A stretch of DNA of 64,000 nt from Alphaproteobacteria bacterium (lineage in GTDB: Bacteria; Pseudomonadota; Alphaproteobacteria; CALKHQ01): contig JBHJOG010000207.1 of NCBI GenBank assembly GCA_050329975.1, positions 7,211 to 71,210 of the forward strand, given 5' to 3'. Below are positions 31,238 to 63,555 of the stretch, piece by piece. The notes under the pieces were generated by a model. It was not told where the DNA came from. It ran no database searches and saw only the letters and a list, made by a program, of their open reading frames with translations. Within the stretch, counting starts at the first letter, position 1. The number at the start of each line of letters is the position of its first letter. The position numbers and the translations under genes are program-made.

Positions 31238-31420
31238 TCAGCGCGCGTCCCCGGCCTTGACCAGCCTGAGCGCGATGACGGCGCCGTTGATCGTCTGCTT
31301 GCCGGCGTTCTCGAAGTTCACGGTGATCGTCCCGTTGATCGCAGACTGGACCTGTCCCATGCCCCATTCCGGCCGGTCGGGGTGTTTGACGAAGGCGCCG
31401 GGCACCAGTGCGGTCTCCAT
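31238..31420 (-). CDS. Small conserved protein, DUF3553-like (tentative)
   Basis: The 60-aa sequence GAFVKHPDRPEWGMGQVQSAINGTITVNFENAGKQTINGAVIALRLV has a GGGAG Shine-Dalgarno upstream. It lies immediately upstream of fdsB. Confidence 0.4.
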   Translation of the reverse strand: METALVPGAFVKHPDRPEWGMGQVQSAINGTITVNFENAGKQTINGAVIALRLVKAGDAR

Positions 31421-31698: not shown

Positions 31699-32349
31699 AT
31701 GCCCGAGATCGATGACATCATGATTTTGCGCTTGGCCTGCTCCAAGCTCTGTCACGATCTCATCAGCCCGGTCAGTGCCGTGAACAACGGTCTCGAGCTG
31801 GTCGGCGATTCGATGGCCGGCGACGTCGAGGCGATGGACCTGATCACATCGAGCGCGCGCGCCGCCGCCGACCGGCTGCAGTACTACCGGGTCGCCTTCG
31901 GCTTCTCCGGCGGATCGGGCCAGTCTCTCAATGCGCTGCAGGCTCTGCTCAAGCCGTTCGTCGCCGACGCGAAATGCCAGTCGTCGTGGACCGTTGATCC
32001 CTCGGTGGCCCAGTCGGTGCTGTCGATCGATGCTGCACAGATCGTGCTGAATGCGATCGCGGCCACGCTGGATTGCCTGCCGCGCAGCGGTGATGTGCGG
32101 GTGGCGCTGACCTCGGCGGGAGACCAACTCCTGACCCTGGTGATCGACGTCGAGGGGCCCTCGGTGCGGATTCGAGACGAGCTGCGCGATGCCCTGACCA
32201 GCCCGATGGGTGAGATCGAGCTTACGGTCCGCGGCGTGCACGGAATCCTGTTGCGCCAGGTGGCGGCCCGCGTCGGCAGCAAGGTTGTCCTGTCGGCCGG
32301 GGACGGTCAAGTCGCCCTGACCGTGGGCCCCATCCCGGTCGACCGCTAA
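31699..32349 (+). CDS. chpT: ChpT-like histidine phosphotransferase (CckA-ChpT-CtrA relay family)
   Basis: LACSKLCHDLISPVSAVNNGLELVGD matches the ChpT phospho-His motif region (CHDFISPxxAI..GL.LL). The rest is a degenerate HATPase-like C-terminal half. An AAGGA Shine-Dalgarno precedes the start; the track start at 31630 was rejected. Confidence 0.65.
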   Translation: MPEIDDIMILRLACSKLCHDLISPVSAVNNGLELVGDSMAGDVEAMDLITSSARAAADRLQYYRVAFGFSGGSGQSLNALQALLKPFVADAKCQSSWTVDPSVAQSVLSIDAAQIVLNAIAATLDCLPRSGDVRVALTSAGDQLLTLVIDVEGPSVRIRDELRDALTSPMGEIELTVRGVHGILLRQVAARVGSKVVLSAGDGQVALTVGPIPVDR

Positions 32350-32387
32350 ACACCTCGGCGAGTCGCCAATGGGATTACTGGTGCCGG

Positions 32388-32407
32388 CCACTGATTATTA
32401 TCAGTGG
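32388..32407. promoter_or_regulatory. Perfect palindrome CCACTGAT-TATT-ATCAGTGG in AT-rich region ~200 bp upstream of cheA; candidate operator
   Basis: Read directly from the sequence. A further CAGTGG copy sits at 32421-32426. Confidence 0.4.
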
Positions 32408-32602
32408 ACTGGCTGTTTCTCAGTGGAATTTTCTCCTATTGTCGCGGATTCTTCCTAAATGTTTCGCTGAGCGCCGCCCAGCGGCCTTTACAGCTTTTTT
32501 ATCATTTTCCCAGAGGATCGCAGCCTGACAACCGGCGATCTCCGGTGGTGCCGTTCCAAAGGCACTCGGTCCGCAACGCGCTGAATCAATGGGTGCTGCA
32601 CG

Positions 32603-35338
32603 ATGGACGACCTTCTGAGCGAATTCTTGACCGAGACCACGGAAAGCCTCGCGCTGCTGGACGTGGAGCTGATCAAGCTCGAACAGACCCCCGACGACCC
32701 GGAATTGCTCGGCAGCATCTTCCGGCTGGTCCATACCATCAAGGGCACCTGCGGCTTCCTCGGGCTTCCGCGGCTCGAGGCGGTGGCGCACGCGTCCGAG
32801 AACGTGCTCGGCAAGGTCCGTGACGGCGCGCTGGACATAACGCCGGTCGCGATCTCGACCATCCTGGAGTCCCTGGACCAGATCAAGTGGATCCTGGCCG
32901 AACTGGAGGCGAAGGAGGCGGAGCCGGAAGGCGAGGACGCCGAGCTGATCTCCCGGCTCAACGCCATCGCGGACGGGGATGCCCCGCCTTCGGGGCCGGC
33001 GGTGACCTGGGAATCCCTCGAGGCCGCATCCGAGGATGCCGAGGAGGCCGTCGATACCGATGACGCGGTCGTGGCTGCCGAGCCGATTGTCGCCGCCGCG
33101 CCGGAGCCCGTCGTGGCCGCAGACGCCGACGACGACTCCGATGCCGACCTCCCGGCGCATCCGGTCGTGGCCAAGCCGGCTGCGGCGCTGGTCAAGGCAG
33201 AGCCGCACGGCGACGTCAAGGAATCAGCCGTCGCCAACCAGACCATCCGGGTCAGCGTCGATCTGCTGGAGAACCTGATGACGCTGGTGAGCGAGCTGGT
33301 GCTCACCCGCAACCAGCTGCTGCAGATGATCCGCAACCAGACCGACAGCGAATTCAACGTGCCCCTGCAGCGGCTGAGCCACGTCACCTCCGAGCTGCAG
33401 GAGAACGTGATGAAGACCCGGATGCAGCCGATCGGCAATGCATGGGCCAAGCTGCCCCGCATCGTCCGCGACCTTTCGGTGGAGCTTGGCAAGAAGATCG
33501 AGCTGGAGATGATCGGCGCTGACACCGAGCTCGATCGGCAGGTTCTGGAGCTGATCAAGGATCCGCTGACCCATATGGTCCGCAACTCCGCCGATCACGG
33601 CCTGGAGACGCCCGATGTGCGGTCCGCGGCCGGCAAGCGCGAGACCGGCACCATCGTGCTGCGCGCCTACCACGAGGGTGGCCACATCATCATCCAGATC
33701 TCCGACGACGGTAAGGGCCTCGACCTCGACCGGATCAAGCAGAAGCTGGTCGGGCAGGGGCTCGCCTCCGAGGCCGAGCTGGATGCGATGACCGACCAGC
33801 AGATCCAGCAGTTCATCTTCAAGGCCGGCTTCTCGACCGCCCAGACCGTGACCAGCGTTTCGGGCCGGGGCGTCGGCATGGATGTCGTCCGCACCAACAT
33901 CGAGAAGATCGGCGGGACCATCGAGCTGGCGTCGGTCGCCGGCAAGGGCAGCCGCTTCACCATCAAGATCCCGCTGACGCTGGCCATCGTCTCGGCGCTG
34001 ATCGTCGAGTGCGGCGGCGAGAAGTTCGCCATGCCGCAGCTGAGCGTGGTCGAGTTGGTGCGCGTCTCCGCCAAGTCGGAGCACCGGATCGAAACCATCA
34101 ACAGCGCGCCGGTGCTGCGTCTTCGCGACCGCATTCTGCCGCTGATCTCGCTGCGCGACCTGCTGCGGCTGAAGACGGCCAATGACGACGAGCCCCAGGG
34201 CGCCACGAAGCGCGAGGCCGTGGCGCCGACGAACGGGACCGCGCTGCTGCACGGCTCGAGCGAGCACTTCATCGTCGTCACCAAGGTCGGGACTTACGAC
34301 TTCGGCATCGTCGTCGACCGCGTGTTCGACACCGAGGAAATCGTGGTCAAGCCGGTGGCGCCGATCCTGCGCAACATCTCCATGTTTTCCGGCAACACCA
34401 TTCTCGGCGACGGCAGCGTGATCATGATCCTCGATCCGAACGGGATCGCAGGTGCGACAAGCGAGGTGGCGCCGGAGGCCGCGGAGGGCAGCAGCAAGGT
34501 GCGCGAGCATGGCAGCGACGAGACCGTGACCATGCTGGTGTTCAAGGCCGGCGACGAGACGCCGAAAGCGGTGCCGCTGGCCCTGATAGCCCGCCTCGAG
34601 GAGATCGCCGCCGACAAGATCGAATGGTCGAGCGGCCGGCCGATGGTCCAGTACCGCGGCAAGCTGATGCCGATCGTGACCATCGCCGACGACTACCAGA
34701 TCAAGACCCAGGGCATGCAGGCAGTGCTGGTGTTCTCCGACGAGGACCATGCGATGGGCCTGGCGGTCGACGTCATCGTCGACATTGTCGAGGATCGCAT
34801 GACCGTCGAACTCTCGGCCGACCGGCCGGGCTATGTCGGCAGCGCGATCATCAGCGGCAAGGCGACTGACGTGATCGACGCCGGCTACTTCCTCGGCAAG
34901 GCGTTCGAGGACTGGTTCGGCACCGGCGCGCACCGCGGCGACGATGGCCGGGCGAGCGGCCGGCATCTGCTGCTGGTCGACGACAGCCCGTTCTTCCGCA
35001 ACATGCTGACCCCGCTGCTCTCGGCTGCCGGCTATGTGGTCACCTCGGTGGAGAGCGCCAAGGATGCGCTCGACCTCTGCGACCAGGGCCGGATGTTCGA
35101 TGTCATTGTCAGCGACATCGAGATGCCGGGCATGAGCGGGCTGGAGTTCGCCGAAGTGGTTCGTGACTCGGCGCAGTGGCGGCAGACTCCGATCGTCGCC
35201 CTGTCGTCGCACACCAACCAGCGCGACATCGATCGCGCCAAGACGGTCGGCTTCAACGACTACGTGGCCAAGACGGACCGCGAGGGTCTGCTGCAGACGC
35301 TGTCGGAGACCGTCGTCGCGCTGCGGGGCGCGGCGTGA
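32603..35338 (+). CDS. cheA: Chemotaxis histidine kinase CheA with C-terminal receiver domain (CheA-REC hybrid)
   Basis: HPt is HTIKGTCGFLGL. There are HATPase motifs, a CheW-like domain, and a C-terminal REC (LLLVDDSPFFRNM...DVIVSDIEMPGMSGLEF...KTD). Confidence 0.9.
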   Translation: MDDLLSEFLTETTESLALLDVELIKLEQTPDDPELLGSIFRLVHTIKGTCGFLGLPRLEAVAHASENVLGKVRDGALDITPVAISTILESLDQIKWILAELEAKEAEPEGEDAELISRLNAIADGDAPPSGPAVTWESLEAASEDAEEAVDTDDAVVAAEPIVAAAPEPVVAADADDDSDADLPAHPVVAKPAAALVKAEPHGDVKESAVANQTIRVSVDLLENLMTLVSELVLTRNQLLQMIRNQTDSEFNVPLQRLSHVTSELQENVMKTRMQPIGNAWAKLPRIVRDLSVELGKKIELEMIGADTELDRQVLELIKDPLTHMVRNSADHGLETPDVRSAAGKRETGTIVLRAYHEGGHIIIQISDDGKGLDLDRIKQKLVGQGLASEAELDAMTDQQIQQFIFKAGFSTAQTVTSVSGRGVGMDVVRTNIEKIGGTIELASVAGKGSRFTIKIPLTLAIVSALIVECGGEKFAMPQLSVVELVRVSAKSEHRIETINSAPVLRLRDRILPLISLRDLLRLKTANDDEPQGATKREAVAPTNGTALLHGSSEHFIVVTKVGTYDFGIVVDRVFDTEEIVVKPVAPILRNISMFSGNTILGDGSVIMILDPNGIAGATSEVAPEAAEGSSKVREHGSDETVTMLVFKAGDETPKAVPLALIARLEEIAADKIEWSSGRPMVQYRGKLMPIVTIADDYQIKTQGMQAVLVFSDEDHAMGLAVDVIVDIVEDRMTVELSADRPGYVGSAIISGKATDVIDAGYFLGKAFEDWFGTGAHRGDDGRASGRHLLLVDDSPFFRNMLTPLLSAAGYVVTSVESAKDALDLCDQGRMFDVIVSDIEMPGMSGLEFAEVVRDSAQWRQTPIVALSSHTNQRDIDRAKTVGFNDYVAKTDREGLLQTLSETVVALRGAA

Positions 35339-35373
35339 ACAGGGCCCGCGACCGGGAACAGGTGAAAGAGATC

Positions 35374-35829
35374 ATGAGCGACGCGATGAGCCAGAATTCC
35401 GATTTCGTGACCGTGACGGTGGCCAAGCAGCTGTTCGGCATCCCGGTGCTGAAGGTCCAGGACATCCTGGGTCCGCAGCGGATCACCCGCATCCCGCTGG
35501 CTCCGCCTGAGGTTGCGGGCGCGCTCAACCTCCGCGGTCGCATCGTCACTGCGATCGACGTCCGCAGCCGGCTGCGCCTGCCGCCGCGAGCGGCCGGCGA
35601 CGAGGGCATGGCGGTGGTGGTCGAGCACGACCAGGAGCTTTACAGCCTGCTGATCGACTCGGTCGGCGACGTGCTCAGCCTCTCGGAGAGCAAGTTCGAG
35701 CGCAATCCGACCACGATGGATGCCCTCTGGCGAGAGGTGTCGGTCGGGATCTACCGGCTGAAGGACGAATTGATGATGGTTCTCGATGTCGACCGGCTGT
35801 TGGCGATCGAGAAAGCTATCGCGGCCTGA
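35374..35829 (+). CDS. cheW: Chemotaxis coupling protein CheW
   Basis: A 151-aa CheW-like domain (FVTVTVAKQLFGIPVLKVQDIL...). The track start at 35176 overlaps cheA and was rejected in favour of the ATG at 35374. Confidence 0.85.
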   Translation: MSDAMSQNSDFVTVTVAKQLFGIPVLKVQDILGPQRITRIPLAPPEVAGALNLRGRIVTAIDVRSRLRLPPRAAGDEGMAVVVEHDQELYSLLIDSVGDVLSLSESKFERNPTTMDALWREVSVGIYRLKDELMMVLDVDRLLAIEKAIAA

Positions 35830-35904
35830 CCGCCGCGACTTGTTTCAATGGCGGCGCCCGGCTTCGTTCGGGCCCGCGCCGAGCGCCACGGAGCCAGTGA
35901 GCCA

Positions 35905-36267
35905 ATGCGGTGTCTTATCGTCGACGATTCCAAGGTGATCCGGGCGGTCACGCGCAAGATCATGGAGGAGCTGTCCTTCGAAACAGTCGAGGCCGCGGAC
36001 GGCGCGGAGGCGATCGACCGCTGCAAGGAACAGATGCCTGACGCGATTTTGCTCGACTGGAACATGCCCCGCGTCGACGGACTCGAGTTCCTCGGCATGC
36101 TGCGCCAGATGGACGGCGGCCAGACACCGATCGTCGTGTTCTGCACCTCCGAGAACGCGATCGACAAGATCGACTCCGCACTCAAATCGGGTGCGAACGA
36201 GTACATCATGAAGCCGTTCGACAGCGAGATCATCCAGTCAAAGCTGCAGCAAGTCGGGTTGATCTGA
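35905..36267 (+). CDS. cheY: Chemotaxis response regulator CheY
   Basis: A 120-aa single REC domain (MRCLIVDDSKVIR...AILLDWNMPRVDGLEFL...MKPF). Confidence 0.85.
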   Translation: MRCLIVDDSKVIRAVTRKIMEELSFETVEAADGAEAIDRCKEQMPDAILLDWNMPRVDGLEFLGMLRQMDGGQTPIVVFCTSENAIDKIDSALKSGANEYIMKPFDSEIIQSKLQQVGLI

Positions 36268-37448
36268 TGACGCCGGAGCCCCTCATCCGCTCCACGGCCG
36301 CCGCCGCGCCCGCGGGCGAACGGACCCGGGTACTTCTGGTCGACGACTCCACGGTCTACCGAAGCCTGGTCCGCCGCGAACTGGTGAAGTGCCCCGACAT
36401 CGAGATCGTCGGCAGCTGCGGCGACGGCAAGTCGGCGATCCGCGCGGTCCAGGCAACCGCTGCCGATGTGGTCGTGCTCGACATCGAGATGCCGATCATG
36501 GATGGGCTTACGGCGTTGCCCCAGTTGATCGCCGCGCGGCCGTCGGTGAAGGTGATCATGGCGTCGACCCTGACGGTGCGCAATGCCGATATCAGCATGC
36601 GCGCGCTGCAGATGGGCGCCGCGGAAACGGTCGCCAAGCCCACCACCGCCAATCTTACCAACGACGCCGACCGGTTCATCCAGGAGCTGATCCGCAAGAT
36701 CCGCGCCCTCGGCGAGGCGGCGCGCCGCAGCGAGAGCCGGCTGGCGCGTCGCGCTGCGCCGGCCGTCCCGGGAGAGGCGGCGCCCGCGCGCCGGCCGGGT
36801 CCATCAAGCGGGCCGGCCGCGGCCGCACCGATCGAGATCAGCCTTCGCCCTGCGCCGACGCGCGCGCCCGAGCTGATCGCCATCGGCAGTTCCACCGGGG
36901 GGCCGAAGGCGCTGATGTCGATGCTGACGGACCTGGTGAAGTCGGTGAAGACGCCGATCATCGTCACCCAGCACATGCCGGCGACGTTCACCGCCATCCT
37001 GGCCGAGCATATCGCGCGTGCGACCGGCCGGCCCACGGTCGAGGCGACCGAAGGCATGACGCTCGAGCCGGAGCGGATCTACGTCGCCCCCGGCGACTAC
37101 CACATGACCGTCCGGCGCGAATCGCGGACGCTGGTGAAACTGCATCTCGACCAGAACCCGCCGGAGAACTTCTGCCGTCCGTCGGTGGACCCGATGCTGC
37201 GGTCCGTGGCGACCTGCTACGGTGCCACGGTGCTCGCGATCATCCTGACCGGCATGGGGCAGGACGGCGCGCAGGGCGCCAAGGCGCTGGTCGCCGCCGG
37301 CGGAGCCGTGGTCGCCCAGGATCAGGCGACCAGCGTGGTCTGGGGCATGCCCCAGGCGGCGGCGAAAGCCGGCGTCTGCAGCGCAGTGCTCCCGCTGGAC
37401 GAGATAGCTCCCTATGTAAGCAGGCTTGCAATGAGGCACGCGGCATGA
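36267..37448 (+). CDS. cheB: Chemotaxis protein-glutamate methylesterase CheB
   Basis: REC domain plus methylesterase domain (LIAIGSSTGGPKAL...VTQHMPATFT...GMGQDGAQG). There is a 1-nt TGATGA overlap with the cheY stop. Confidence 0.9.
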   Translation: MTPEPLIRSTAAAAPAGERTRVLLVDDSTVYRSLVRRELVKCPDIEIVGSCGDGKSAIRAVQATAADVVVLDIEMPIMDGLTALPQLIAARPSVKVIMASTLTVRNADISMRALQMGAAETVAKPTTANLTNDADRFIQELIRKIRALGEAARRSESRLARRAAPAVPGEAAPARRPGPSSGPAAAAPIEISLRPAPTRAPELIAIGSSTGGPKALMSMLTDLVKSVKTPIIVTQHMPATFTAILAEHIARATGRPTVEATEGMTLEPERIYVAPGDYHMTVRRESRTLVKLHLDQNPPENFCRPSVDPMLRSVATCYGATVLAIILTGMGQDGAQGAKALVAAGGAVVAQDQATSVVWGMPQAAAKAGVCSAVLPLDEIAPYVSRLAMRHAA

Positions 37449-38305
37449 ATACCGAGGACTTCGAACTCATCACCTCATTGCTGAAGAAGCGCAGCGGCCT
37501 GGTGCTGACGCGCGACAAGATGTACCTGCTCGAGAGCCGCCTGACGCCGGTCGCGCGCGCATTCGGGCTCGGCGGCCTGCCGGGTCTGATCGACGCCATT
37601 CGCAAGCGTCCGGATCCGAAGCTGATCGACGAGGTGGTCGACGCCATGACCACCAACGAGTCCTTCTTCTTCCGTGACATCAAGCCGTTCGACCAGTTTC
37701 GCGACCATGTGCTGCCTACGTTGCTGAAGTCGCGCGCCGCCCAGAAGTCGATCCGGATCTGGAGCGCGGCCTGTTCCAGCGGCCAGGAAGCCTATTCGCT
37801 CTGCATGATCCTGAAAGAGCACGCGGCCAAGCTGGCCGGCTGGAAGGTTGAGATCGTCGGCACCGACATCTCGCGCGAAATGCTGACGAAGGCCCGGCGG
37901 GGCGTGTATTCGCAGTTCGAGGTCCAGCGCGGCCTGCCGATCGCCAATCTGGTCAAGTTCTTCGGTCAGGAGGGCGACAAGTGGACCATCTCCGCCGAGC
38001 TGCGTGCCATGGTGCAGTTCCGCGAGTTCAACCTGCTGGACGATCCGCGCGGACTCGGCATGTTCGACGTGGTGTTCTGCCGCAACGTTCTGATCTACTT
38101 CGACCAGGAGACCAAGGCCAAGGTCCTGCATGCGATCGGTGGGGTGTTGAGGCCGGACGGCTTCCTCTATCTCGGGGGTGCGGAGACCGTGCTCGGGGTG
38201 ACCGACCGCTTCGCCCCGATGGCGGGCATGCGCGGCATCTACGGGCATGTGGCTCGCGAGCTGGCGCCGCGTGAGGCGAGTGCCCCGATTCGGGCCGCCG
38301 TCTGA
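37445..38305 (+). CDS. cheR: Chemotaxis protein methyltransferase CheR
   Basis: CheR N-terminal helical domain plus SAM-dependent methyltransferase domain (IRIWSAACSSGQEAYSL...VFCRNVLIYF). The ATGA overlap with the cheB stop sets the start; the track frame starting at 36389 was rejected. Confidence 0.9.
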   Translation: MNTEDFELITSLLKKRSGLVLTRDKMYLLESRLTPVARAFGLGGLPGLIDAIRKRPDPKLIDEVVDAMTTNESFFFRDIKPFDQFRDHVLPTLLKSRAAQKSIRIWSAACSSGQEAYSLCMILKEHAAKLAGWKVEIVGTDISREMLTKARRGVYSQFEVQRGLPIANLVKFFGQEGDKWTISAELRAMVQFREFNLLDDPRGLGMFDVVFCRNVLIYFDQETKAKVLHAIGGVLRPDGFLYLGGAETVLGVTDRFAPMAGMRGIYGHVARELAPREASAPIRAAV

Positions 38306-38337
38306 GTCAGCCCAGGTCGCGCCCGGACAATACAGCA

Positions 38338-38368
38338 AAAAACCGCCGGGGGACCGGCGGTTTTTTCT
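38338..38368. terminator. Rho-independent bidirectional terminator between convergent cheR and ctrA
   Basis: CAAAAAACCGCCGGGGGACCGGCGGTTTTTTCTT is an 8-bp GC stem with a GGGA loop, flanked by an A-tract and a T-tract. Confidence 0.8.
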
Positions 38369-38423
38369 TGGGTCGCGCATGAGCCGGCCCGCGCCAAGCG
38401 GCGGGGCCGGCGGATCGGAACCG

Positions 38424-39188
38424 TCAGCCGGCGTGGGCGAAGGATACGTAGCCGTCGTCGTCGTGGCCGACCGGGACGCCGGCACCGGCCGGGCGTCGCT
38501 CGCCGCCTTCGGCCTGGGGATCGCGCAGTACATAGCCGCGGCCCCAGACGGTCTCGATGTAGTTGGAGCCGCCGGTGGCGGTCGACAGCTTCTTGCGCAG
38601 CTTGCAGACGAACACGTCGATGATCTTCAGCTCCGGTTCGTCGATGCCGCCATAGAGGTGGTTGAGGAACATCTCCTTGGTCAGCGTCGTCCCCTTGCGC
38701 AGGCTCAGCAGCTCGAGGATGCCGTATTCCTTGCCGGTCAGGTGCAGCGGCTTGCCCTCGACCTCGACCGTATGGGCGTCGAGGTTCACGGCCAGCTTGC
38801 CGGTGCGGATGACGGATTCGGCGTGGCCCTTGGACCGGCGGATGATGGCGTGGATTCGCGCGATCAGTTCGGCCTTGTCGAAAGGCTTGGTCAGATAGTC
38901 GTCGGCGCCGAAGCCCAGGCCCTTGACCTTGTTGTTCGGCTCGTTGAGGCCGGACAGGATCAGGATTGGAGTCTGCACCCGCGCCGCGCGCAGCCGGCGG
39001 AGCACCTCGTAGCCGTCGATGTCAGGGAGCAGCAGGTCGAGAACGATGATGTCGTAGTCGTAGAGCTTTCCGATCTCCAGGCCATCCTCGCCCAGGTCGG
39101 TCATGTCGACGACAAAGCCTTCGGATTGCAGCATCATCTGGATGCTTCGTGCAATCGGAGTATCGTCTTCTACCAACAAAACCCGCAT
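38424..39188 (-). CDS. ctrA: Cell-cycle/motility master response regulator CtrA (OmpR family)
   Basis: MRVLLVEDD...[23 protein letters not shown]...TPILILSG...[68 protein letters not shown]...[12 protein letters not shown] is near-identical in pattern to Caulobacter CtrA. A ~25-aa C-terminal tail is present. Confidence 0.9.
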
Positions 39189-39426
39189 GTTCGACTCCCG
39201 CTTGAATGCATTGTGCGGTCGGCCGTGGGGATCGCCGCCGCGGTCGGTTGCATCTGATTAACATTAACTTTCTCACCCATTCGTTAAGCAAGGGTAAACG
39301 CTCCGATTGTCGGTGGGGGGTTCATTCACAATTAATGGAACGGCACCGGCATGTGATTTACGCCGGCTTAATCCCCGCCGCCTAACATCCCTGGACCCGC
39401 TCGCATCGCAGAAGGCGACGCCGCAT

Positions 39427-40776
39427 ATGCCCGTTCTCGTCGACACCCTGGTCAGGGAGGTTTCTGCCATCCCGAACCCGCAGATCTTCGGGCGGGTGAC
39501 CGCAGCCCAGGGCATGCTGATCGAGGTCGGCGGCGCCCACCGCGCGATGTCGGTCGGCGATCGCTGCCGCATCCGCACGCGCAGCCGCGCGCCATTGCGC
39601 TGCGAGGTGGTCGGCTTTCACAAGGACAGAGCGATCGTGATGCCGTTCGGCCCGGCCGAGGGTATCGGACTCGGCTGCCGGGTCGAGCTCAGCGGCGCCG
39701 CGGCCTATGTCCATCCGGGGCGGGGCTGGCTCGGTCGCGTGATCAACGCGCTCGGCGAGCCGATCGACGGCAAGGGCCCGCTGCCGCACGGCCCACGCGG
39801 CTACGAGATCAGGGCGATGCCCCCTGCCGCCCACACGCGCGAGCGCGTCGGCGCGAAGATCGACCTCGGGGTCAGAGCGCTCAACAGCTTCGTCACCTGC
39901 TGCCGCGGCCAGCGCATGGGCATCTTTGCCGGCTCCGGCGTGGGCAAGTCGGTGCTGATGTCGATGCTGGCGCGCTACACCGCCTGCGACGTCTCGGTCA
40001 TTGCGCTCGTCGGCGAGCGCGGGCGCGAGGTGCAGGAGTTCATCGAGGACGACCTGGGGCCGGAAGGCCTGGCGCGCAGCGTCGTGGTGGTCGCAACCTC
40101 CGACGAGCCGCCCCTGATGCGCCGGCAGGCTGCCCAGCTTGCGCTGTCGGTGGCCGAATGCTTCCGGGATGAGGGCAAGGACGTGCTCTGCCTCATGGAC
40201 AGCGTCACCCGCTACGCCATGGCGCTGCGCGAGATCGGGCTTTCGGCCGGCGAGCCGCCTACGACACGCGGCTATCCGCCATCGGTGTTCGCGGAATTGC
40301 CGAAGCTCCTGGAGCGCGCCGGGCCGGGAGCTGCCGGCCAGGGCAGCATCACCGGGCTGTTCACCGTACTGGTCGAGGGCGACGATCACAACGAGCCGAT
40401 CTCGGATGCCGTTCGCGGTATCCTGGACGGCCACATCGTGATGGAGCGCGCCATCGCGGAGCGCGGCCGCTATCCGGCGATCAACGTGCTGCGATCGATC
40501 TCCCGGACCATGCCGCAGTGCAACAGCCGCGAAGAGATGGCGCTGGTGCTGACCGCGCGTCGTCTGCTGTCGACCTATGGAGACATGGAGGAGTTGATCA
40601 GGCTCGGCGCCTATCGTCCGGGGAGCAACCCGGAGGTCGACGAGGCGATCGCGGTGCAGCCGCAGCTCGAGGCCTTTCTTAACCAGATGAAAAGCGAACA
40701 CTCCGATTTTGCCGAAACCTACGCCCAACTCGCCGCGATTCTCGGCGAAGCCCCCCCGACAGGACAATCTGGATGA
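39427..40776 (+). CDS. fliI: Flagellum-specific ATP synthase FliI
   Basis: It has Walker A (GSGVGKS), Walker B and the F1/T3SS ATPase fold. The track start at 39307 was rejected for the ATG at 39427. Confidence 0.9.
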
Positions 40777-41201
40777 AAAGCCTCGATAGCCTGATTCGCC
40801 TGCAGAAGTGGCAGCTCGACGAGAAGCGTCGGCAGCTCGGCGACCTGCGCCGGATGCATGCCGACTTGGCCGCGGCGATTGCGCGCCTCGAAGAAGACAT
40901 CGCCAACGAGGCCGTGCTGGCCCGCAAGGACCAGTCGCTCGGCGCCACGTTCGGCGCGTTCGCGCAGGCCGCCGAGGAGCGCAAGCAGAAGCTCGTCGGC
41001 TCCCTGCGCGAGCTCGACAGCCAGATCGACCTCGTCGAGCACGAGATCGGTGCCGCCTTCACCGAACTGAAGAAGGTCGAACTGATCAAGGATAGCCGCG
41101 AGGCGCGGATTCGTCAGAGCAGCGCCCGCCGCAGCCAGGCGACCCTCGACGAGATCGGCTCGATCATGGCCCGTCGCCGGCAGGCCGGCGAAAGCTCCTG
41201 A
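40773..41201 (+). CDS. fliJ: Flagellar export protein FliJ
   Basis: A 142-aa coiled-coil protein that starts with an ATGA overlap of the fliI stop. FliJ normally occupies this position after fliI. Confidence 0.65.
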
Positions 41202-41205
41202 CGGC

Positions 41206-42714
41206 CTACACCGTCACGTCGGGATGCACCTGCTCGGCCCGCACCGCTGGTGCCGTGAGGTCCGGCTGCTCGACGAAGCGAATATGGCCCTTCAGGCCCA
41301 TTGCCGCGATCGTGTCGCCGAACAGCGCCTCGATCTCAGCCCGGGACTCGGCGCCGAATGCGGTGCGACTGATCAGCAGCAGGTCTAGCCGGCCGGTTCC
41401 CGCGAGGCCGTCGAGCCGGACCGGGCCGAGCCTGGAGAATCCGAAGTCGATCTGGAATCGAGCCCGGTCGTCTTCGCCGCCCTCGTCCTGCCCGTCATCG
41501 GGCTCCTGCCATGCAACCCTGAGCGGCTGCCAGCCGTGGGCGGTCGCGATCGGCAGGTAGAGCGCCCGCCAGAGTTCGCTGCCGGCGGAGGCGGCCTCGG
41601 TCTCCAGGCGCGACCCGCGCTGGGAGAGTGCCTCGGCGAGACGCTTGAGCAGGCTGTCGCGTCCCTGTTTCTGCATCGCCTGCTGTGCGTCCTGGCCCAC
41701 CAGGGCACCGACGCCGCCTCCCTGCAAGGCGGCCATCAGGAACAGGGTCGACGACCCCAGCTTGGGGCCCATCCGTGGCAGCCGGGCGTCGACGGCAGCG
41801 GCCAGCGACGGCTGGGCGACGAGCGCCGCCATCATCTCGTCGAGCAAGCCCCCCAGTTGCGCGATCGATGGAGCCGGCGGTCCGACGCTTCGGGCTGTCG
41901 CCAGCACCTCCAGCCGAAGCCTGGCGCCGTCCGGCAGGTCGCCGCGATCCAGCACCAGCGTGCCGTTGGCAAAGTTCAGCACCGGCTGGCCCAGGGCGGC
42001 CCGGCCGCTCACGGTCGCCTCGAACGGTGCCGGCACGGTCAGCGACGGGGGCTGAGCGGTACCCGGCCGGGCGGTTGCCTGGCTTCCGCCCAACAGGGGC
42101 TGGATCGCCGGCTCGATCGCCAGGATCCGCACGGTGACCGTCGTCGGGCCGATGGCGGGAAGAGTGGGGCCGGCCGGCGGCGGTTGCGCTGCGGCGTTCG
42201 ATGGCGCCGTCTGGGCGGCGGGCAACAGTCGCGCCTGCACCACGTCGCCGGCGGCCAGCGTCGGGATGGCATGGCCAGTTGCCGGCGCGGACGCGCCGGC
42301 GGTGCCGGTTGCAGGCTGGGTCTGCGGGGGCAGCAGGCGCACGACTCCCCCGGTATCCACCGCGAGCCGCAGCGAGGCGCCGGGCTCGGTGGTCAGGCCG
42401 GGCGCCGTCACCAGGATTCGTCCCAGCGCCGTCTCCAGGCGAATCGTGTCCGCAGCCTGGGTTGCGACCACCCGCGCCGCGAGCGTCACCGGCGCAGGCA
42501 GGCTGCGCAGATCGACCGAGGATTCGCTGACGGTGACCCGGGTTCCGCTCTCGGCCGTCGTCGACGGCGCCGGTTGCTGCCTGGGCGCTTCCTGGGTCCC
42601 GGTCGCGGTCGAGGGGGACGGGGCTGCCGGCGCCGCCCTGCCGCTCTCGGAAGCCGCAGGCAGAGGCCGCGCGACGACCGCCGTCACCGGGGCGACGACG
42701 GGAACTTCAACCAT
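41206..42714 (-). CDS. Ala/Pro-rich hypothetical protein, last gene of the flhA-flhF-flhG operon
   Basis: The start overlaps the flhG stop by 8 nt. The N-terminal ~250 aa are low-complexity and Pro/Ala/Thr/Gln-rich. The C-terminal ~200 aa are globular (…ALYLPIATAHGWQPLRVAWQEPDD…RFQIDFGFSRLGPVRLDGLAGTGRLDLLLISRTAF…). No recognised family. Confidence 0.5.
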   Translation of the reverse strand: MVEVPVVAPVTAVVARPLPAASESGRAAPAAPSPSTATGTQEAPRQQPAPSTTAESGTRVTVSESSVDLRSLPAPVTLAARVVATQAADTIRLETALGRILVTAPGLTTEPGASLRLAVDTGGVVRLLPPQTQPATGTAGASAPATGHAIPTLAAGDVVQARLLPAAQTAPSNAAAQPPPAGPTLPAIGPTTVTVRILAIEPAIQPLLGGSQATARPGTAQPPSLTVPAPFEATVSGRAALGQPVLNFANGTLVLDRGDLPDGARLRLEVLATARSVGPPAPSIAQLGGLLDEMMAALVAQPSLAAAVDARLPRMGPKLGSSTLFLMAALQGGGVGALVGQDAQQAMQKQGRDSLLKRLAEALSQRGSRLETEAASAGSELWRALYLPIATAHGWQPLRVAWQEPDDGQDEGGEDDRARFQIDFGFSRLGPVRLDGLAGTGRLDLLLISRTAFGAESRAEIEALFGDTIAAMGLKGHIRFVEQPDLTAPAVRAEQVHPDVTV

Positions 42715-50277: not shown

Positions 50278-51990
50278 TTAGTTCTGACCTTCTTCGGTGT
50301 AGAGCCAGCTGCGCAGAAGTGCCACCGCCTCCTGCGGGTGGTTGTCGATGATCTCGCTGACCTTGTTGATCGAGGAGCGACGGACCTGGCCCTCGATCTT
50401 GGCGAGGTCGATGAAGTCGTCCATCGCGGTGCGGCTCGGCGCCTTCGGCCGCCCGTCGTCTTCCGCCTCGCCCTCGCTGCCGGCGGGCCCCGTCAGCAGC
50501 GGCTGGCCGTCCGCGCCCATCGTTGCCGCGATCGCAGGGTTGCCCGCCGCGCCGGCAAGCGCCGGCACGGCTCCGCCGGCTCCGCTCATGCCGCGCATGA
50601 TTGGCCGAACCACGAAGATGATCGCCACCAACGCCAGCACGACCAGCAGCAGGATTTCGATCAGCCGCGTGAGGTCGATGCCGAACTCTTCCAGCATTCC
50701 AGGAACCTCGACGCCGGAGCCGACCTGCATCTCGGCAAGGGACATGCCTTGGGCGAACTGCAGGTTCTGCACCTCCAATGTATCGCCGCGCGCAGGGTCG
50801 TAGCCGACCGCCGATTCGACCAGGGCCTGCATCGCCGCAAGCTCCTCCTGGCTGCGCGGCCGGTAGCTGATCGTGGAGACCTCGTTTCCGTCCGCATCCG
50901 TGACGACCGTCGGGTCGTAGGAACCGTCGATCATCACGGCGATGGACAGCCGCCGGACAGCGCCGGGCGCAAATGTGGTCTGGGTCTCGACCACCGACAG
51001 GCGGTTGGCGACACGTTCCTCCAGCGAGCTGTCGCTCGAGAAGCTGGTGGTACCGTCCACCGCGCCATCCTGGGGGTTTGGCAGTTCGGCGAGCACGGTA
51101 ACGCCGTCGCCGCCTCGCTGGTCGGTGGATTCCCGGGTTCTCTCGACGGTCGTGACCTCGGCCGGCACGACGCCTTCCGGGTCGTAGCTGGTCGACGACT
51201 GGGTCACCAGGTCGAAGTTCATCGATGCCGTGACCTTGGCCTGGACATGACCGGCCCCGACATAGGCACTCAGCAACTCCACGATCCGGTGTTCGAGCTC
51301 GGCCTCGTAGGCGGTCTGCAGCTGCTCCGAGCGGCTGGTCTGGGTGGACTGGCTGAGCAGGCGGCCGCCCTGGTCGATCACCGAGACGTTGTCCGGTTCC
51401 ATGCGGTTGACGGCCGAGGCGACCAGGTTCTGGATCGCCATCACCTGGTCGGCGGAGATCGTACGTCCGCCACGGATGTCCAGAATGATCGAGGCGCTGG
51501 GCGGCTGGGTCTCCCGGCTGAACGTCATCCGCTGCGGCAGCACGAGGTGCACGCGCGCGTTCTGCACGGAGTCCAGCCAGCGGATGGTGCGCGCGAGCTC
51601 GCCCTCGATCGCGCGCTGCTGGTTGATCTCGATGATGTTGCTGGTGGTGCCGAGCGCGTCGAGATTGTCGAAGATCTCGTAGCCGATCACGCCATAGCCC
51701 GGCAGGCCGTTGGCCGCCATGTCCAGCCGCAGGCGGGCGACCTCGGTTGACGGCACCATGATGGTCGTGCCGCCGTTGGTCAGCTGGTAGTCGACCCCGC
51801 GTGAGTCGAGCTCGCCGACGATCGCGGTGCTGTCGCCCGGCTCCAGGCCGGCGAACAGCGGGGTCATCTCGGTGGCGCTGAACCGCGAGATGATATAGGC
51901 GAACAGTCCGATCAGCCCGGCGGCGACCAGCCCGAGCGCGATGATCCTTCCCGGACCAAGACTGCGCAATGTGTTGATCAGGCCCTGCAC
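50278..51990 (-). CDS. fliF: Flagellar MS-ring protein FliF
   Basis: 570 aa with N-terminal TM, a YscJ/FliF domain and a C-terminal TM (ILLLVVLALVAIIFVV). GTG start with a GGGGAG Shine-Dalgarno 10 nt upstream. The stop abuts the fliG ATG. Confidence 0.95.
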   Translation of the reverse strand: MQGLINTLRSLGPGRIIALGLVAAGLIGLFAYIISRFSATEMTPLFAGLEPGDSTAIVGELDSRGVDYQLTNGGTTIMVPSTEVARLRLDMAANGLPGYGVIGYEIFDNLDALGTTSNIIEINQQRAIEGELARTIRWLDSVQNARVHLVLPQRMTFSRETQPPSASIILDIRGGRTISADQVMAIQNLVASAVNRMEPDNVSVIDQGGRLLSQSTQTSRSEQLQTAYEAELEHRIVELLSAYVGAGHVQAKVTASMNFDLVTQSSTSYDPEGVVPAEVTTVERTRESTDQRGGDGVTVLAELPNPQDGAVDGTTSFSSDSSLEERVANRLSVVETQTTFAPGAVRRLSIAVMIDGSYDPTVVTDADGNEVSTISYRPRSQEELAAMQALVESAVGYDPARGDTLEVQNLQFAQGMSLAEMQVGSGVEVPGMLEEFGIDLTRLIEILLLVVLALVAIIFVVRPIMRGMSGAGGAVPALAGAAGNPAIAATMGADGQPLLTGPAGSEGEAEDDGRPKAPSRTAMDDFIDLAKIEGQVRRSSINKVSEIIDNHPQEAVALLRSWLYTEEGQN

Positions 51991-52143
51991 GACCCTGCAT
52001 CTCCCCGGTTACAGGAGGCTTGGGCACGTCCATCCAGGGACTCTGGTCCGGCCGTACCCTCGCGTCACCGAGACGCTAGGGCCGACGTGCTGAACAACAG
52101 GTTAAGCGGGGGCAGATTTTGCCTAGCAGGCGGCAAATCTTGC

Positions 52144-52443
52144 TCAGCCGAGATGCGGGCGGTTGTCGACGTTTTCCCGGTAGTCCTGCAGCCGGGTGGT
52201 GCGAAGGCCCCGCATGCCGTGGCGCTCGATCAGACGCTGCCAGGACAGGAATTCCTCGACCGACAGGCGGTAACGCTTGCAGGCATCTTCGAGGCTGATC
52301 AGGCCCGAGCGGACACCGGCGACGACCTGCGCCTTTCGCTTGATCACCCAACGCTTCGTGTTGGGCGGCGGTAGATCATCGACGCTGGATGGAGCCCCGA
52401 CCGAGTCGAGGATCGCGTCGTCGAAGCCTTTGGTTGTGTCCAT
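52144..52443 (-). CDS. DUF1153-family small protein (putative HTH DNA-binding) within flagellar cluster
   Basis: MDTTKGFDD...RWVIKRKAQVVAGVRSGLISLEDACKRYRLSVEEFLSWQRLIERHGMRGLRTTRLQDYR matches my recollection of the DUF1153 family pattern. The Arg-poor upstream extension in the track was rejected. Confidence 0.55.
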   Translation of the reverse strand: MDTTKGFDDAILDSVGAPSSVDDLPPPNTKRWVIKRKAQVVAGVRSGLISLEDACKRYRLSVEEFLSWQRLIERHGMRGLRTTRLQDYRENVDNRPHLG

Positions 52444-52545: not shown

Positions 52546-52564
52546 ATGGTTAATCATGGAATTC
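52546..52564 (-). promoter_or_regulatory. CtrA-box-like motif (minus strand GAAT-N7-TTAACCAT) ~90 nt upstream of the DUF1153 gene
   Basis: It contains the canonical TTAACCAT half-site in an AT-rich intergenic stretch. The first half-site is degenerate. Confidence 0.35.
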
Positions 52565-59641: not shown

Positions 59642-59907
59642 GACAGTTGGCTCGGATTGAAGTCTTTGATTCCTGTGATATCTGATAGTTAATCGAAGGT
59701 AAAATGGTCAGAGTGCTCGGCAAATGTTGCCGTTGCCGGGGGAAATTTTTGCCGCAGCGGGGAAGAATCTGCCGGATGCATTTTCTTAGGGTAAATCAAT
59801 CCTTGACTATACTGATGTATTTGCGGTTTCTCCGATCTCTCACCAGGTTCGTTGCCGGTCTGACCCTGATGGTGCCTGGAAGGGCCTTGAGTTGCTGACA
59901 GCGGTTG

Positions 59908-59923
59908 CTTGCGTGGATTAGGC
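59908..59923 (+). promoter_or_regulatory. CtrA-box-like motif TTAG-N7-TTAAC ~30 nt upstream of the neuB/pseI-like gene
   Basis: There is a single mismatch to TTAA-N7-TTAAC, and TTAACCAA partially overlaps the TTAACCAT half-site consensus. Confidence 0.35.
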
Positions 59924-59954
59924 TCCCGTTAACCAACATCGGTGTCGATAGGGC

Positions 59955-60818
59955 ATGGTCCAGTTCATCGCCGAGATATCCAGCAACCATGCCCGCGATC
60001 CGGGCCGCTGCGCCGCACTGATCGCGGCGGCCGCAGCGGCCGGCTGCGACGCGGTCAAGTTCCAGCTCTTCCGGGTCGACGCGTTGTTCGCGCCGGAAAT
60101 CCTCGCCCGCAGCGCCGAGCATCGCCGGCGGAAGGACTGGGAGCTGCCGGTCGAGCTGATCCCGCAACTCGCGGCGCAGGCGCGGGATCGAGGAATGGCC
60201 TTCGGCTGCACGCCCTTCGACCTCGATGCCGTCGAGGCGTTGCGCGCGCATGTGGATTTTCTGAAGGTCGCTTCCTATGAGCTGATCTGGCGTGACCTCA
60301 TCGCGGCCTGCGCGCGCACCGGGCTGCCGACCATCCTGTCCACCGGCATGGCCACCCTCGAAGAGGCGGTCGCCGCGGTCGCCGGCGCGCGCGAAGACGG
60401 CGCGGGCGACCTCACGGTCCTGCACTGCGTTTCGAGCTACCCGACGCCGCCCGCCCAATGCAACCTGGCGGCCATGGCCACCATCGCGCGCGCCTGCGGC
60501 GTACCGGTGGGCTGGTCCGACCACAGCCGATCGCCCGAGGTGGTGCTGCGCGCAGTCCATCGCTGGAATGCGGCAATGGTCGAGTTCCACCTCGACCTCG
60601 ATGGATCCGGCGCCGAGTACGCCCCGGGCCATTGCTGGCTGCCCGAGGAGATCGCGCCGGTGATTGCCGCCTGTCGCCAGGGGGCGGTGCTCGACGGCGA
60701 CGGCAAGAAGGCGCCGCAGCCCTGCGAGCTGGCCGATCGGGACTGGCGGGCGGACCCCGTCGACGGCCTCCGGCCGCTGCTGGCAACCCGCGCCCGGTGG
60801 CTGGAGGAGGCATCGTGA
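59955..60818 (+). CDS. neuB: Nonulosonic acid (sialic/pseudaminic/legionaminic acid) synthase family protein (NeuB/PseI-like), short form without obvious SAF domain
   Basis: FIAEISSNHARDPGRCAALIAAAAAAGCDAVKFQLF...FLKVASYELIW...TILSTGMATLEE...LHCVSSYPTPP fits NeuB family motifs (IAEIGxNHxG; KFQ; hCvS.YP). Confidence 0.8.
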   Translation: MVQFIAEISSNHARDPGRCAALIAAAAAAGCDAVKFQLFRVDALFAPEILARSAEHRRRKDWELPVELIPQLAAQARDRGMAFGCTPFDLDAVEALRAHVDFLKVASYELIWRDLIAACARTGLPTILSTGMATLEEAVAAVAGAREDGAGDLTVLHCVSSYPTPPAQCNLAAMATIARACGVPVGWSDHSRSPEVVLRAVHRWNAAMVEFHLDLDGSGAEYAPGHCWLPEEIAPVIAACRQGAVLDGDGKKAPQPCELADRDWRADPVDGLRPLLATRARWLEEAS

Positions 60819-62629: not shown

Positions 62630-63555
62630 TGCCGGCGAGCGCGCTCGCCGCGGTGCGGCACGACGGCCCGTTGCTGGCCGAGCGCGACGGCTTTGCGGTT
62701 ATCGACTGCACGGGCTGCGGCTATGCCCATGCCATGCCGCTCCCCAGCGTGGACGCGCTGATCGATACCTACCGCCATGACTATTATGCCGCGGAGAAGC
62801 CGCTTTACCTGGCGCGGACCGAGGAGGACCGCGCCTGGTGGCTCGACGTCTACGATGAACGCGTGGCCACAATGGAGGCCTGGCGGGGCCAGGCCCCCGG
62901 AGCGATTCTCGACATCGGCAGCGGCCCCGGCCTGTTTCTCGACGCGGCCGCGGCGCGCGGCTGGCGCACGCGCGGGGTCGAGCCGTCCCGCCAGGCCGCC
63001 ACCCATGCGCGCGGGCTCGGCCACGAGATCCGCGAAGGCTTCTTCGGGGCGGCGATGGCCGCGTCGCTGGACCCGGTCGACGCCGTACACATGGCGCTGG
63101 TGCTGGAGCATGTGCCGGAGCCGGCCAGCCTGCTTGCTGCGGCGCGCGGGCTGCTGCGGCCGAGCGGTGTCCTCTGCGTCGTGGTGCCGAACGACTTCAG
63201 TCCGTTGCAGCGGGTGGTGGAGGGGCAGGGAATGGCACCTTGGTGGGTGGCCCCGCCGCACCACCTCAACTACTTCACCCCCGTGAGCCTGACCGCCCTG
63301 CTGGAACGCACCGGGTTTACCGTCGTCGAGCGCACCGCCACCTTCCCGATGGAGCTGTTCCTGCTGATGGGCGAGGCCTATGTCGGCGACGACGCCCTCG
63401 GGCGCGCCTGCCACGGCAAGCGCAAGGCCTTCGAGACCGCGATGCGGCGGGCCGGGCAGTCAGACCGGCTGGCGCGGCTCTATCGCAGCCTGGCCGACCA
63501 GGGCCTCGGCCGCGAGATCGTGCTGTACGCGCGCGCCGCCGGCAGCGCGCGATGA
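62626..63555 (+). CDS. Class I SAM-dependent methyltransferase
   Basis: Motif I is ILDIGSGPGLF. Motif post-I/II follows (GWRTRGVEPS..., VDAVHMALVLEHVPEP). ATGA overlap with the upstream stop. Confidence 0.75.
   Translation: MMPASALAAVRHDGPLLAERDGFAVIDCTGCGYAHAMPLPSVDALIDTYRHDYYAAEKPLYLARTEEDRAWWLDVYDERVATMEAWRGQAPGAILDIGSGPGLFLDAAAARGWRTRGVEPSRQAATHARGLGHEIREGFFGAAMAASLDPVDAVHMALVLEHVPEPASLLAAARGLLRPSGVLCVVVPNDFSPLQRVVEGQGMAPWWVAPPHHLNYFTPVSLTALLERTGFTVVERTATFPMELFLLMGEAYVGDDALGRACHGKRKAFETAMRRAGQSDRLARLYRSLADQGLGREIVLYARAAGSAR

Follow-up and report, generated by a model that had tools for sequence, protein, structure and literature searches.

Results

Organization of the locus

The stretch of DNA analysed, 64,000 nucleotides of an alphaproteobacterial contig, is referred to below as the window. 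In the region of interest chpT, cheA with a fused receiver domain, cheW, cheY, cheB and cheR are followed by a terminator hairpin, by ctrA on the opposite strand and by fliI and fliJ, downstream of which lie approximately 20 kb of flagellar genes. All genes named in an initial annotation of this DNA were recovered at or near their positions in it. The features of this part of the window are:

31238-31420, minus strand: small DUF3553 gene, 60 aa, divergent from chpT (Pfam PF12073, 92 bits)
31699-32349, plus strand: chpT, 216 aa, predicted CtrA-relay histidine phosphotransferase (PF10090 HPTransfase, 58.3 bits; cut-off 22.9)
32603-35338, plus strand: cheA, 911 aa (Pfam Hpt, H-kinase_dim, HATPase_c, CheW and C-terminal Response_reg)
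35386-35829, plus strand: cheW (PF01584, 112 bits; start taken from the gene call in relative L001)
35905-36267, plus strand: cheY, 120 aa (PF00072, 97.6 bits; the top NCBIfam matches are CheY models)
36267-37448, plus strand: cheB (NF001965, 386.5 bits; cut-off 293)
37445-38305, plus strand: cheR (PF01739, 205 bits, and PF03705)
38337-38366, both strands: predicted bidirectional intrinsic terminator, AAAAAACCGCCGG-GGGA-CCGGCGGTTTTTT, with a 13-pair stem and T runs on both strands
38424-39188, minus strand: ctrA, 254 aa (NCBIfam NF045991, 419.5 bits; cut-off 350)
39427-41201, plus strand: fliI-fliJ, flagellar export ATPase and partner (TIGR03498, 668 bits; cut-off 587)

The ChpT protein

The PF10090 match of ChpT spans profile positions 3-121 of 123. 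The predicted phosphorylation site, His19 (codon 31753-31755), lies in the motif LCHDLISPV and is invariant in 23 aligned homologues; the same motif is aligned in 4QPJ_A and 4FMT_A. No HATPase_c match was obtained with Pfam at an E value of 0.001 or better. The best PDB sequence matches were ChpT chains (E about 1e-21). An AF2 model (pLDDT 92.3, pTM 0.88) has a two-domain fold, consisting of a DHp-like helical hairpin and a kinase-CA-like alpha/beta domain, and its top seven PDB fold matches were all ChpT chains (4QPJ/4QPK/4FMT/4FPP) with TM scores of 0.80-0.86, compared with approximately 0.5-0.6 for true kinases.

At the sequence level the protein is approximately 28-35% identical to characterised ChpTs and does not exceed 43% identity to ChpTs from beyond its own clade, an uncultured lineage; the gene calls of GCA_964505755.1 include an identical 216-aa gene. 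It scored 118.3 bits against NCBIfam NF046018 (Brucella/rhizobia; cut-off 240; positions 12-209 of 211) and 116.2 bits against NF046025 (Caulobacter; cut-off 225; positions 8-202 of 204), aligning full-length but remaining under the cut-off in both cases. Since the two models are clade-specific, these scores exclude close equivalence to the respective clades, not membership of the ChpT family. The initial annotation had placed a ChpT-type phosphotransferase directly upstream of cheA and had made this depend on HMM assignment of the reading frame; PF10090 was passed, and the PDB sequence and fold matches point the same way. We conclude from these matches and from the model that the product is a genuine ChpT-family phosphotransferase.

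The che operon

The che genes occupy positions 32603-38305, and Pfam and NCBIfam matches bear out the cheAWYBR operon of the initial annotation. CheA has domains P1-P5 and, as had also been claimed, ends in a receiver (Response_reg, aa 790-898; the fused receiver as a whole covers approximately aa 785-911, nt 34955-35335); cheW, cheY, cheB and cheR follow in that order. The operon contains no MCP gene. Percent identities of the CheA receiver were uninformative, at 32-36% to each of CheY, the CheB receiver and the CtrA receiver. Receiver helix 1 of CheA (DDSPFFRNM) resembles those of CheY (DDSKVIR) and CheB (DDSTVYR).

ctrA and the flagellar cluster

cheR and ctrA converge on the hairpin at 38337-38366, as the initial annotation had described. 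The NF045991 match of CtrA covers positions 1-224 of 224, with the next family at 177.6 bits, and a C-terminal tail extends approximately 30 aa past the family model. The domains are PF00072 (aa 3-112) and PF00486 Trans_reg_C (aa 145-221), and Asp51 is present. Identity to Caulobacter CtrA is presumably about 69%. The receiver is 70% identical to that of Brucella CtrA (PDB 4QPJ_C). By its profile match the product is a CtrA orthologue; its description as near-identical to Caulobacter CtrA was too strong, given an identity of approximately 70%.

The flagellar genes that the initial annotation had placed next to the che and ctrA genes were found from fliI/fliJ (the FliJ profile match being weak) through the flagellin genes. 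Their order after fliIJ is flhG, flhF, flhA, flbD, fliN, fliH, fliG, fliF, sciP, flgE, flgD, fliK, flaF, flbT and two flagellin genes, and the cluster reaches position 59466. Two of them are needed below:

50278-51990, minus strand: fliF
52144-52443, minus strand: sciP, predicted CtrA inhibitor (NF051866, 124.4 bits, cut-off 100; PF06627, 118 bits)

The sciP gene lies within the flagellar cluster, beyond the stretch covered by the initial annotation (31699-39188), and was not mentioned there. Approximately 100 nt upstream of it, at 52546-52553, is the half-site TTAACCAT, the only perfect one in the window. cckA was not found among the screened long ORFs of the window.

CtrA boxes

CtrA boxes were defined as sites of the TTAA-N7-TTAA type, and those with at most one mismatch were termed near-consensus. 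The scan for boxes at flagellar promoters that the initial annotation had called for returned seven near-consensus sites in the window, against 0.37 expected (an approximately 19-fold enrichment), and none of 100 shuffles reached seven. All seven lie in the ctrA/flagellar cluster, six of them intergenic and one within flbT. The intergenic sites are:

39284-39298, 39321-39335 and 39357-39371: three near-consensus CtrA boxes in the divergent ctrA/fliI promoter region
52091-52105: near-consensus CtrA box approximately 100 nt upstream of fliF
59689-59703 and 59918-59932: two near-consensus CtrA boxes between a flagellin gene and glycosylation genes

The first and third boxes of the ctrA/fliI region are conserved in relatives L005 and L006, and 28 CtrA boxes were observed in the ctrA-fliI spacers of relatives against 5.2 expected. 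No enrichment was detected upstream of chpT (five boxes observed, 3.1 expected in 81 loci), and a perfect TTAA-N7-TTAA occurs nowhere in the window. A variant of the box with 6-bp spacing was discarded, as it merely re-found the same sites. Putative sites of the TTAA-N7-TTAA type are thus present at ctrA's own promoter and at flagellar promoters, and the earlier statement that the CtrA relay is housed with motility genes holds.

The chpT-cheA gap

chpT and cheA are separated by 253 bp with a GC content of 54.5%, compared with 67.7% for the window, in agreement with the AT-rich gap noted initially. Two elements were identified in it:

32391-32410, plus strand: hairpin CCACTGAT-TATT-ATCAGTGG, just 3' of chpT (from sequence, fold and alignment)
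32484-32508, plus strand: conserved block GCCTTTACAGCTTTTTTATCATTTT (from an alignment of relatives)

The hairpin has no T run, is not conserved in L005 or L006 and was not flagged as a terminator; it is the source of the RNA fold signal of the gap, which reached a z-score of only -2.35. The terminator scan revealed no canonical terminator after chpT, and the promoter scan no sigma-70 promoter on the plus strand of the gap. No Rfam family reached its gathering score anywhere in the window, and the gap therefore holds no known riboswitch or sRNA.

The block at 32484-32508 is the sole long conserved stretch of the gap among relatives whose ChpT is 71-74% identical. Within it, positions 32487-32501 form a degenerate CtrA-like box, TTTA-N7-TTTA, which lies 116 nt ahead of the ATG of cheA. 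This box has two mismatches and, taken alone, does not stand out from chance (212 of 500 shuffles), so that a function can be argued from conservation and position only. In 18 of 20 more distant relatives a near-consensus CtrA box occupies the corresponding position. Inspection by eye gave no convincing match to sigma-54 (GG-N10-GC) or sigma-28 motifs in the block. The conserved block, together with the near-consensus boxes at its position in relatives, makes it probable that the che operon is transcribed from a promoter of its own, and the block itself is probably a che promoter or operator.

Conservation of the gene order

We compared 38 non-redundant loci with at least 9 kb of sequence downstream of chpT. 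The locus set was taken from the best 80 of 591 matches by similarity to the query and is therefore not an unbiased sample; Bradyrhizobium is over-represented. The che operon directly follows chpT in 27 of the 38 loci (cheA was detectable in 25), ctrA lies on the opposite strand within 10 kb of chpT in 29, and only two have neither. The taxa include Nitrospirillum, Magnetospira, Thalassospiraceae, Nisaea, Stellaceae, Emcibacter, Inquilinaceae, Bradyrhizobium, Methylobacterium and Sphingomonas. Set against these relatives and Rhodospirillum rubrum, the window has the order and strands of the cluster, with chpT and cheA to cheR on the plus strand, ctrA on the minus strand and fliI and fliJ again on the plus strand. 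Upstream of chpT, the DUF3553 gene is found in at least 12 of the 38 loci.

The loci form a reduction series. Some carry the full che operon, L038 and L066 keep cheY and cheR, a lone receiver gene is left in L019, L028 and L030, and chpT abuts ctrA in L023, L043 and L054. This series points to an ancestral chpT-che-ctrA cluster, of which the chpT-ctrA neighbourhoods in some Hyphomicrobiales-type genomes would be remnants.

Discussion

The locus is a fresh instance of a known arrangement, and all its parts belong to well-studied families. In R. rubrum S1 the flagellar gene cluster extends from RRU_RS02725 to RRU_RS02860, and the consecutive genes RRU_RS02725 to RRU_RS02760 are chpT, a CheA-type gene (942 aa, labelled cheW), a response regulator, cheB, cheR, ctrA, fliI and fliJ (PMC12363192 Table S2C); the main text of that study associates the relay genes with flagellar genes. 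Both loci share chpT, a CheA-type hybrid of more than 900 aa, a single-domain response regulator, cheB, cheR, ctrA, fliI and fliJ and, further on, flhA, a sigma-54 activator, fliN, fliH, fliG, fliF, flgE and flgD. They differ in that the R. rubrum table has no separate cheW between kinase and response regulator and has motA ahead of fliN, and R. rubrum CtrA has 239 aa compared with 254 aa here. Moreover, cckA is tied to flagellar genes in R. rubrum, whereas none was seen in this window. A layout that is widespread in Alphaproteobacteria and tabulated for R. rubrum is ordinary. The initial annotation had regarded the coupling of chpT to cheA as unusual; it is instead the common state in the loci compared.

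The individual components also have well-known counterparts. The Che1 cluster of Rhodospirillum centenum likewise has a CheA fused to a receiver domain, with CheA, CheW, CheY, CheB and CheR homologues (PMC2890560). In common with characterised CtrA relays, our locus has the ChpT fold with the HDLISP histidine motif, the CtrA domains with Asp51, the TTAA-N7-TTAA-type motif and SciP; it differs from them in sequence (identities of approximately 28-35% for ChpT and approximately 70% for CtrA) and in the lack of a perfect full box. The relay genes lie in the motility cluster here, whereas they have distant locus tags in Phaeobacter and Agrobacterium. The che operon of Caulobacter is reportedly CtrA-dependent, a finding attributed to Jones et al. 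in 2001. CtrA has been proposed to have had motility control as its ancestral function (PMC3692519). The chpT-che-ctrA neighbourhood goes unmentioned in Brilli et al. 2010 and in Tomasch et al. 2021.

We consider it likely that a motility supercluster conserved in Alphaproteobacteria has its regulatory and chemosensory end here, and that chpT and cheA do not form a special operon. His19 of ChpT would be phosphorylated by a CckA kinase whose gene lies elsewhere, and ChpT would pass the phosphoryl group to Asp51 of CtrA. Phosphorylated CtrA (CtrA~P) may then autoregulate ctrA and turn on fliI, fliF, sciP and the flagellin genes at the boxes, and may switch on the che operon via the conserved element in the chpT-cheA gap, with SciP in turn restraining CtrA. 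chpT would have its own promoter, lacking a CtrA box, in the spacer shared with the DUF3553 gene, and the CheA receiver would be CheY-like, with the P1 domain of CheA itself serving it. The genes may be clustered because they are members of one ancestral regulon.

Three other readings were weighed. chpT could be co-transcribed with the che operon and also wired to it, ChpT and the CheA receiver exchanging phosphoryl groups such that chemosensory input feeds CtrA or the state of the relay feeds chemotaxis. In 25-27 of the 38 relatives chpT and cheA remain neighbours on the same strand, with gaps of 67-312 bp, the CheA adjacent to chpT has a receiver in nearly all complete cases, and the lack of a canonical terminator after chpT makes read-through into cheA possible. 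However, the gap has a conserved element or CtrA box of its own, at the position of the relatives' boxes, and the co-transcription considered initially is not required for the layout. The CheA directly next to chpT in Sphingomonas (L017) lacks a receiver, and chpT still lies beside ctrA in the three loci that have lost the che genes, which identifies ctrA as its stable partner. Read against PMC9981736, the CheA receiver also appears to carry Phe at a contact position for which a small Ala is retained in the CckA-ChpT-CtrA relay, and to lack the FxSGY 'FATGUY' motif found in intermediary receivers of the CckA type. We therefore regard this wiring as improbable. Its core, a phosphotransfer branch between ChpT and the CheA receiver that would explain the long-kept adjacency and let chemoreceptor activity modulate CtrA~P, or the reverse, is made unlikely by this evidence; if true, chemoreceptor activity would reach flagellar and cell-cycle transcription through CtrA~P.

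The ChpT-like protein might also be a diverged HPTransfase paralogue serving another pathway, with the true ChpT of CtrA encoded elsewhere. Its scores under both NCBIfam ChpT equivalog cut-offs and its low identity to characterised ChpTs would fit this, and the assignment draws on genome data from the window plus 13 kb of the MAG. Yet the NCBIfam models, specific to Brucella/rhizobia and to Caulobacter, both align full-length, the fold is that of ChpT and clearly apart from true kinases, the gene sits at the syntenic position of R. rubrum chpT (PMC12363192), and 29 of the 38 relatives show its linkage to ctrA; we give the paralogue very little credence. Finally, the locus could be a chance junction, without regulatory meaning, of a formate dehydrogenase-DUF3553-chpT block and a che-ctrA-fla block, and a 4.07-Mb MAG (L004/L010) indeed keeps the former block with unrelated genes after chpT. 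Against this, the linkage recurs across orders with differing upstream blocks, and CtrA boxes mark the cluster. We rate such a junction as the least probable of all; because it recurs in relatives from several orders, the chpT-che-ctrA layout is not due to chance.

As a discovery the locus carries little weight, since its gene families are well studied and the layout is already in the R. rubrum table. Researchers working on the CtrA pathway may wish to look at the DUF3553 gene, a candidate that is uncharacterised and lies divergently from chpT in several orders. With this locus, the range of the conserved chpT-che-ctrA-fliIJ cluster now includes an uncultured and poorly sampled lineage of Alphaproteobacteria.

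Organization of the locus

ORF lists and domain scans bore out the gene map of the initial annotation, including its CheA ending in a receiver domain and its two-way terminator between cheR and the convergent ctrA, which is a hairpin with T runs on both strands.

Features of the locus
31699-32349, + strand: chpT (216 aa, motif LCHDLISPV)
32603-35338, + strand: cheA (Hpt, dimerisation, HATPase_c, CheW-like and C-terminal receiver domains)
35386-35829: cheW
35905-36267: cheY
36267-37448: cheB
37445-38305: cheR
38337-38366: hairpin AAAAAACCGCCGG-GGGA-CCGGCGGTTTTTT, T run on both strands
38424-39188, - strand: ctrA, convergent with cheR
39427-41201: fliI and fliJ, divergent from ctrA
3' of fliJ, to 59466: flhG, flhF, flhA, flbD, fliN, fliH, fliG, fliF, sciP, flgE, flgD, fliK, flaF, flbT and two flagellin genes
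3' of the flagellar cluster: flagellin-glycosylation-type genes

Gene calls on two read-assembly contigs and on a 23.8-kb contig of MAG GCA_964505755.1 give an identical 216-aa product, which favours the ATG at 31699 over a longer chpT ORF of 239 aa. A terminator-like GC-rich hairpin (35819-35838) overlaps the 3' end of cheW, upstream of the 75-bp spacer to cheY, and might act as an attenuator within the che operon. Convergent with fliJ lies a 502-aa Pro/Ala-rich ORF (41206-42714, - strand) for which Pfam and NCBIfam searches gave no match; the relatives L005 and L006 carry a gene of comparable size in the equivalent position. Beyond both flagellin genes, NeuB-like, cytidylyltransferase/glycosyltransferase and methyltransferase genes (59955-63555) suggest flagellin glycosylation with nonulosonic acid.

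Identity of ChpT and CtrA

The ChpT protein scored above the Pfam HPTransfase cut-off (58.3 bits against 22.9). It matched both ChpT equivalog models of NCBIfam over their full length, although below cut-offs that are high and clade-specific (118 against 240 and 116 against 225). Its PDB sequence matches were exclusively the Brucella and Caulobacter ChpT structures (E about 1e-21). In an AlphaFold2 model built from 23 homologues (pLDDT 92.3), the predicted fold had ChpT chains as its top seven structural matches (TM 0.80-0.86), and genuine histidine kinases ranked lower (TM about 0.5-0.6). His19 was invariant across the alignment of these homologues. Given the Pfam score, the PDB and fold matches and the conserved His19, the failed HMM assignment that the initial annotation named as grounds for dismissing ChpT does not apply, and the identification is supported. 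Compared with ChpTs of other clades, its identity does not exceed 43%.

CtrA exceeded the NCBIfam CtrA equivalog cut-off (419.5 bits against 350) and has Asp51. It shares 70% identity with the Brucella CtrA receiver and ~69% with a presumed Caulobacter CtrA sequence, so that its earlier description as near-identical to the Caulobacter protein was too strong. The C-terminus (38424-38516) extends ~30 residues past the 224-position family model; CtrA is of similar length in L005 and L006 (253 and 258 aa).

Conservation of the gene order

The genomic surroundings of ChpT relatives were retrieved for 80 loci, homologues of all the window proteins were placed in them by tblastn, and counts were made on the 38 non-redundant loci that extend 9 kb or more 3' of chpT. 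The che operon follows chpT immediately on the same strand in 27/38 (cheA detectable in 25), ctrA is encoded no more than 10 kb away on the other strand in 29/38, both cheA and ctrA are present in 19/38, and only two of the 38 have neither che operon nor ctrA; these fractions are not unbiased frequencies, since the 80 loci are the best of 591 hits by query similarity. The loci come from Nitrospirillum, Magnetospira, Thalassospiraceae, Nisaea, Stellaceae, Emcibacter, Inquilinaceae, Bradyrhizobium, Methylobacterium, Sphingomonas and many MAGs. They form a reduction series from the full A-W-Y-B-R operon through cheY and cheR (L038, L066) and a single receiver gene (L019, L028, L030) to chpT directly adjoining ctrA (L023, L043, L054). 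In the five loci of the two middle steps, from Hyphomicrobiales-type and Inquilinaceae genomes, what remains between chpT and ctrA is one single-domain receiver gene, alone or together with cheR; these loci seem to be partway through losing the che operon.

The same layout is on record for R. rubrum, where RRU_RS02725-RRU_RS02760 are listed as consecutive genes (PMC12363192, Table S2C): chpT, a 942-aa CheA-type protein labelled cheW, a response regulator, cheB, cheR, ctrA, fliI and fliJ, after which the list gives flhA, a sigma-54 activator, motA, fliN, fliH, fliG, fliF, flgE and flgD. CtrA phosphorelay genes have been tied to flagellar genes in that species (PMC12363192), and a receiver-fused CheA has been described in the R. 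centenum Che1 cluster (PMC2890560). The proposal that chpT-cheA coupling is unusual is not supported by the 27/38 loci or by the tabulated R. rubrum order.

Upstream, the formate dehydrogenase and DUF3553 block is retained in the closest complete MAG (L004/L010), which has unrelated genes 3' of chpT. The DUF3553 gene (60 aa, 31238-31420, - strand) is divergent from chpT and is so paired in at least 12/38 non-redundant relatives from several orders (L004-L006, L013, L014, L020, L022, L027, L031, L032, L037, L038, L043, L051, L054, L066). A literature search for DUF3553 returned only one paper, an unrelated one; it is possibly an uncharacterised companion of the CtrA relay.

More than 20 Bradyrhizobium draft contigs stop 250-1,200 bp 3' of chpT, at or shortly before the 5' part of cheA (L041, L045, L047-L049, L052, L055, L056, L058, L062, L064, L065, L067-L069, L072, L074, L077, L079-L081, L083, L088). 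In the window CheA, residues from about 110 to 200 form an acidic linker rich in Ala and Pro, and a low-complexity or repeated stretch in this region may break short-read assemblies.

CtrA boxes and transcription of the locus

Using published motif definitions (PMC6180460), we found no perfect TTAA-N7-TTAA in the window and seven boxes with one mismatch, against 0.37 expected, a number reached in 0/100 shuffles.

Predicted CtrA boxes
39284, 39321, 39357: ctrA/fliI spacer
52091: ~100 nt 5' of fliF
57075: within flbT
59689, 59918: beside a flagellin gene

Activating CtrA sites sit near the -35 region (PMC6180460). Two of the three spacer boxes, the first and the third, are kept in relatives with ~70-90% protein identity, and the ctrA-fliI spacers of 20 relatives hold 28 boxes against 5.2 expected. 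Between fliF and flgE lies sciP (52144-52443, - strand; NF051866, 124 bits, cut-off 100), a CtrA inhibitor and the third CtrA-pathway gene of the window, absent from the initial annotation. The sole perfect TTAACCAT half-site of the window (52546-52553) is ~100 nt upstream of it.

The 253-bp gap between chpT and cheA was fairly described as AT-rich, its GC content being 54.5% against 67.7% for the window. It has diverged from two relatives except for one block, GCCTTTACAGCTTTTTTATCATTTT (32484-32508), 116 nt 5' of the cheA ATG. This block holds TTTA-N7-TTTA, a two-mismatch box that alone is no better than chance. More distant relatives have clear boxes at the equivalent position (e.g. TTAACGGCGGGTTAA, TTTACAGCTTTTTAA), Bradyrhizobium has TTAAC-N6-TTTAC throughout, and a gap box with at most one mismatch occurs in 18/20 relatives. 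No enrichment was found 5' of chpT (5 boxes against 3.1 expected, 81 loci). On these sequence comparisons, the simplest reading is that chpT would be driven by its own promoter lacking a CtrA box and the che operon by a second promoter, located in the gap and probably responsive to CtrA. Transcription may also read through from chpT into cheA, as the hairpin after chpT (32391-32410) has no T run and is not conserved.

A closer coupling, in which ChpT exchanges phosphoryl groups with the receiver fused to CheA, would be the sole reading to make the locus remarkable. The conserved chpT-cheA adjacency and the almost constant receiver fusion speak for it, but in Sphingomonas (L017) chpT adjoins a CheA without a receiver, and loss of the che genes leaves chpT beside ctrA. 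The residues of the CheA receiver also seem to speak against it: helix 1 (DDSPFFRNM) resembles those of cheY (DDSKVIR) and cheB (DDSTVYR), a Phe apparently occupies the position where CckA-ChpT-CtrA interfaces retain a small Ala, and the FxSGY motif that marks intermediary receivers of the CckA type appears to be missing (PMC9981736). We regard such exchange as very improbable.

The chpT-che-ctrA-fliIJ layout is conserved and already tabulated, and the window is a further instance of it, from an uncultured alphaproteobacterial lineage. The results support the general interpretation that the CtrA relay forms part of the motility regulon.
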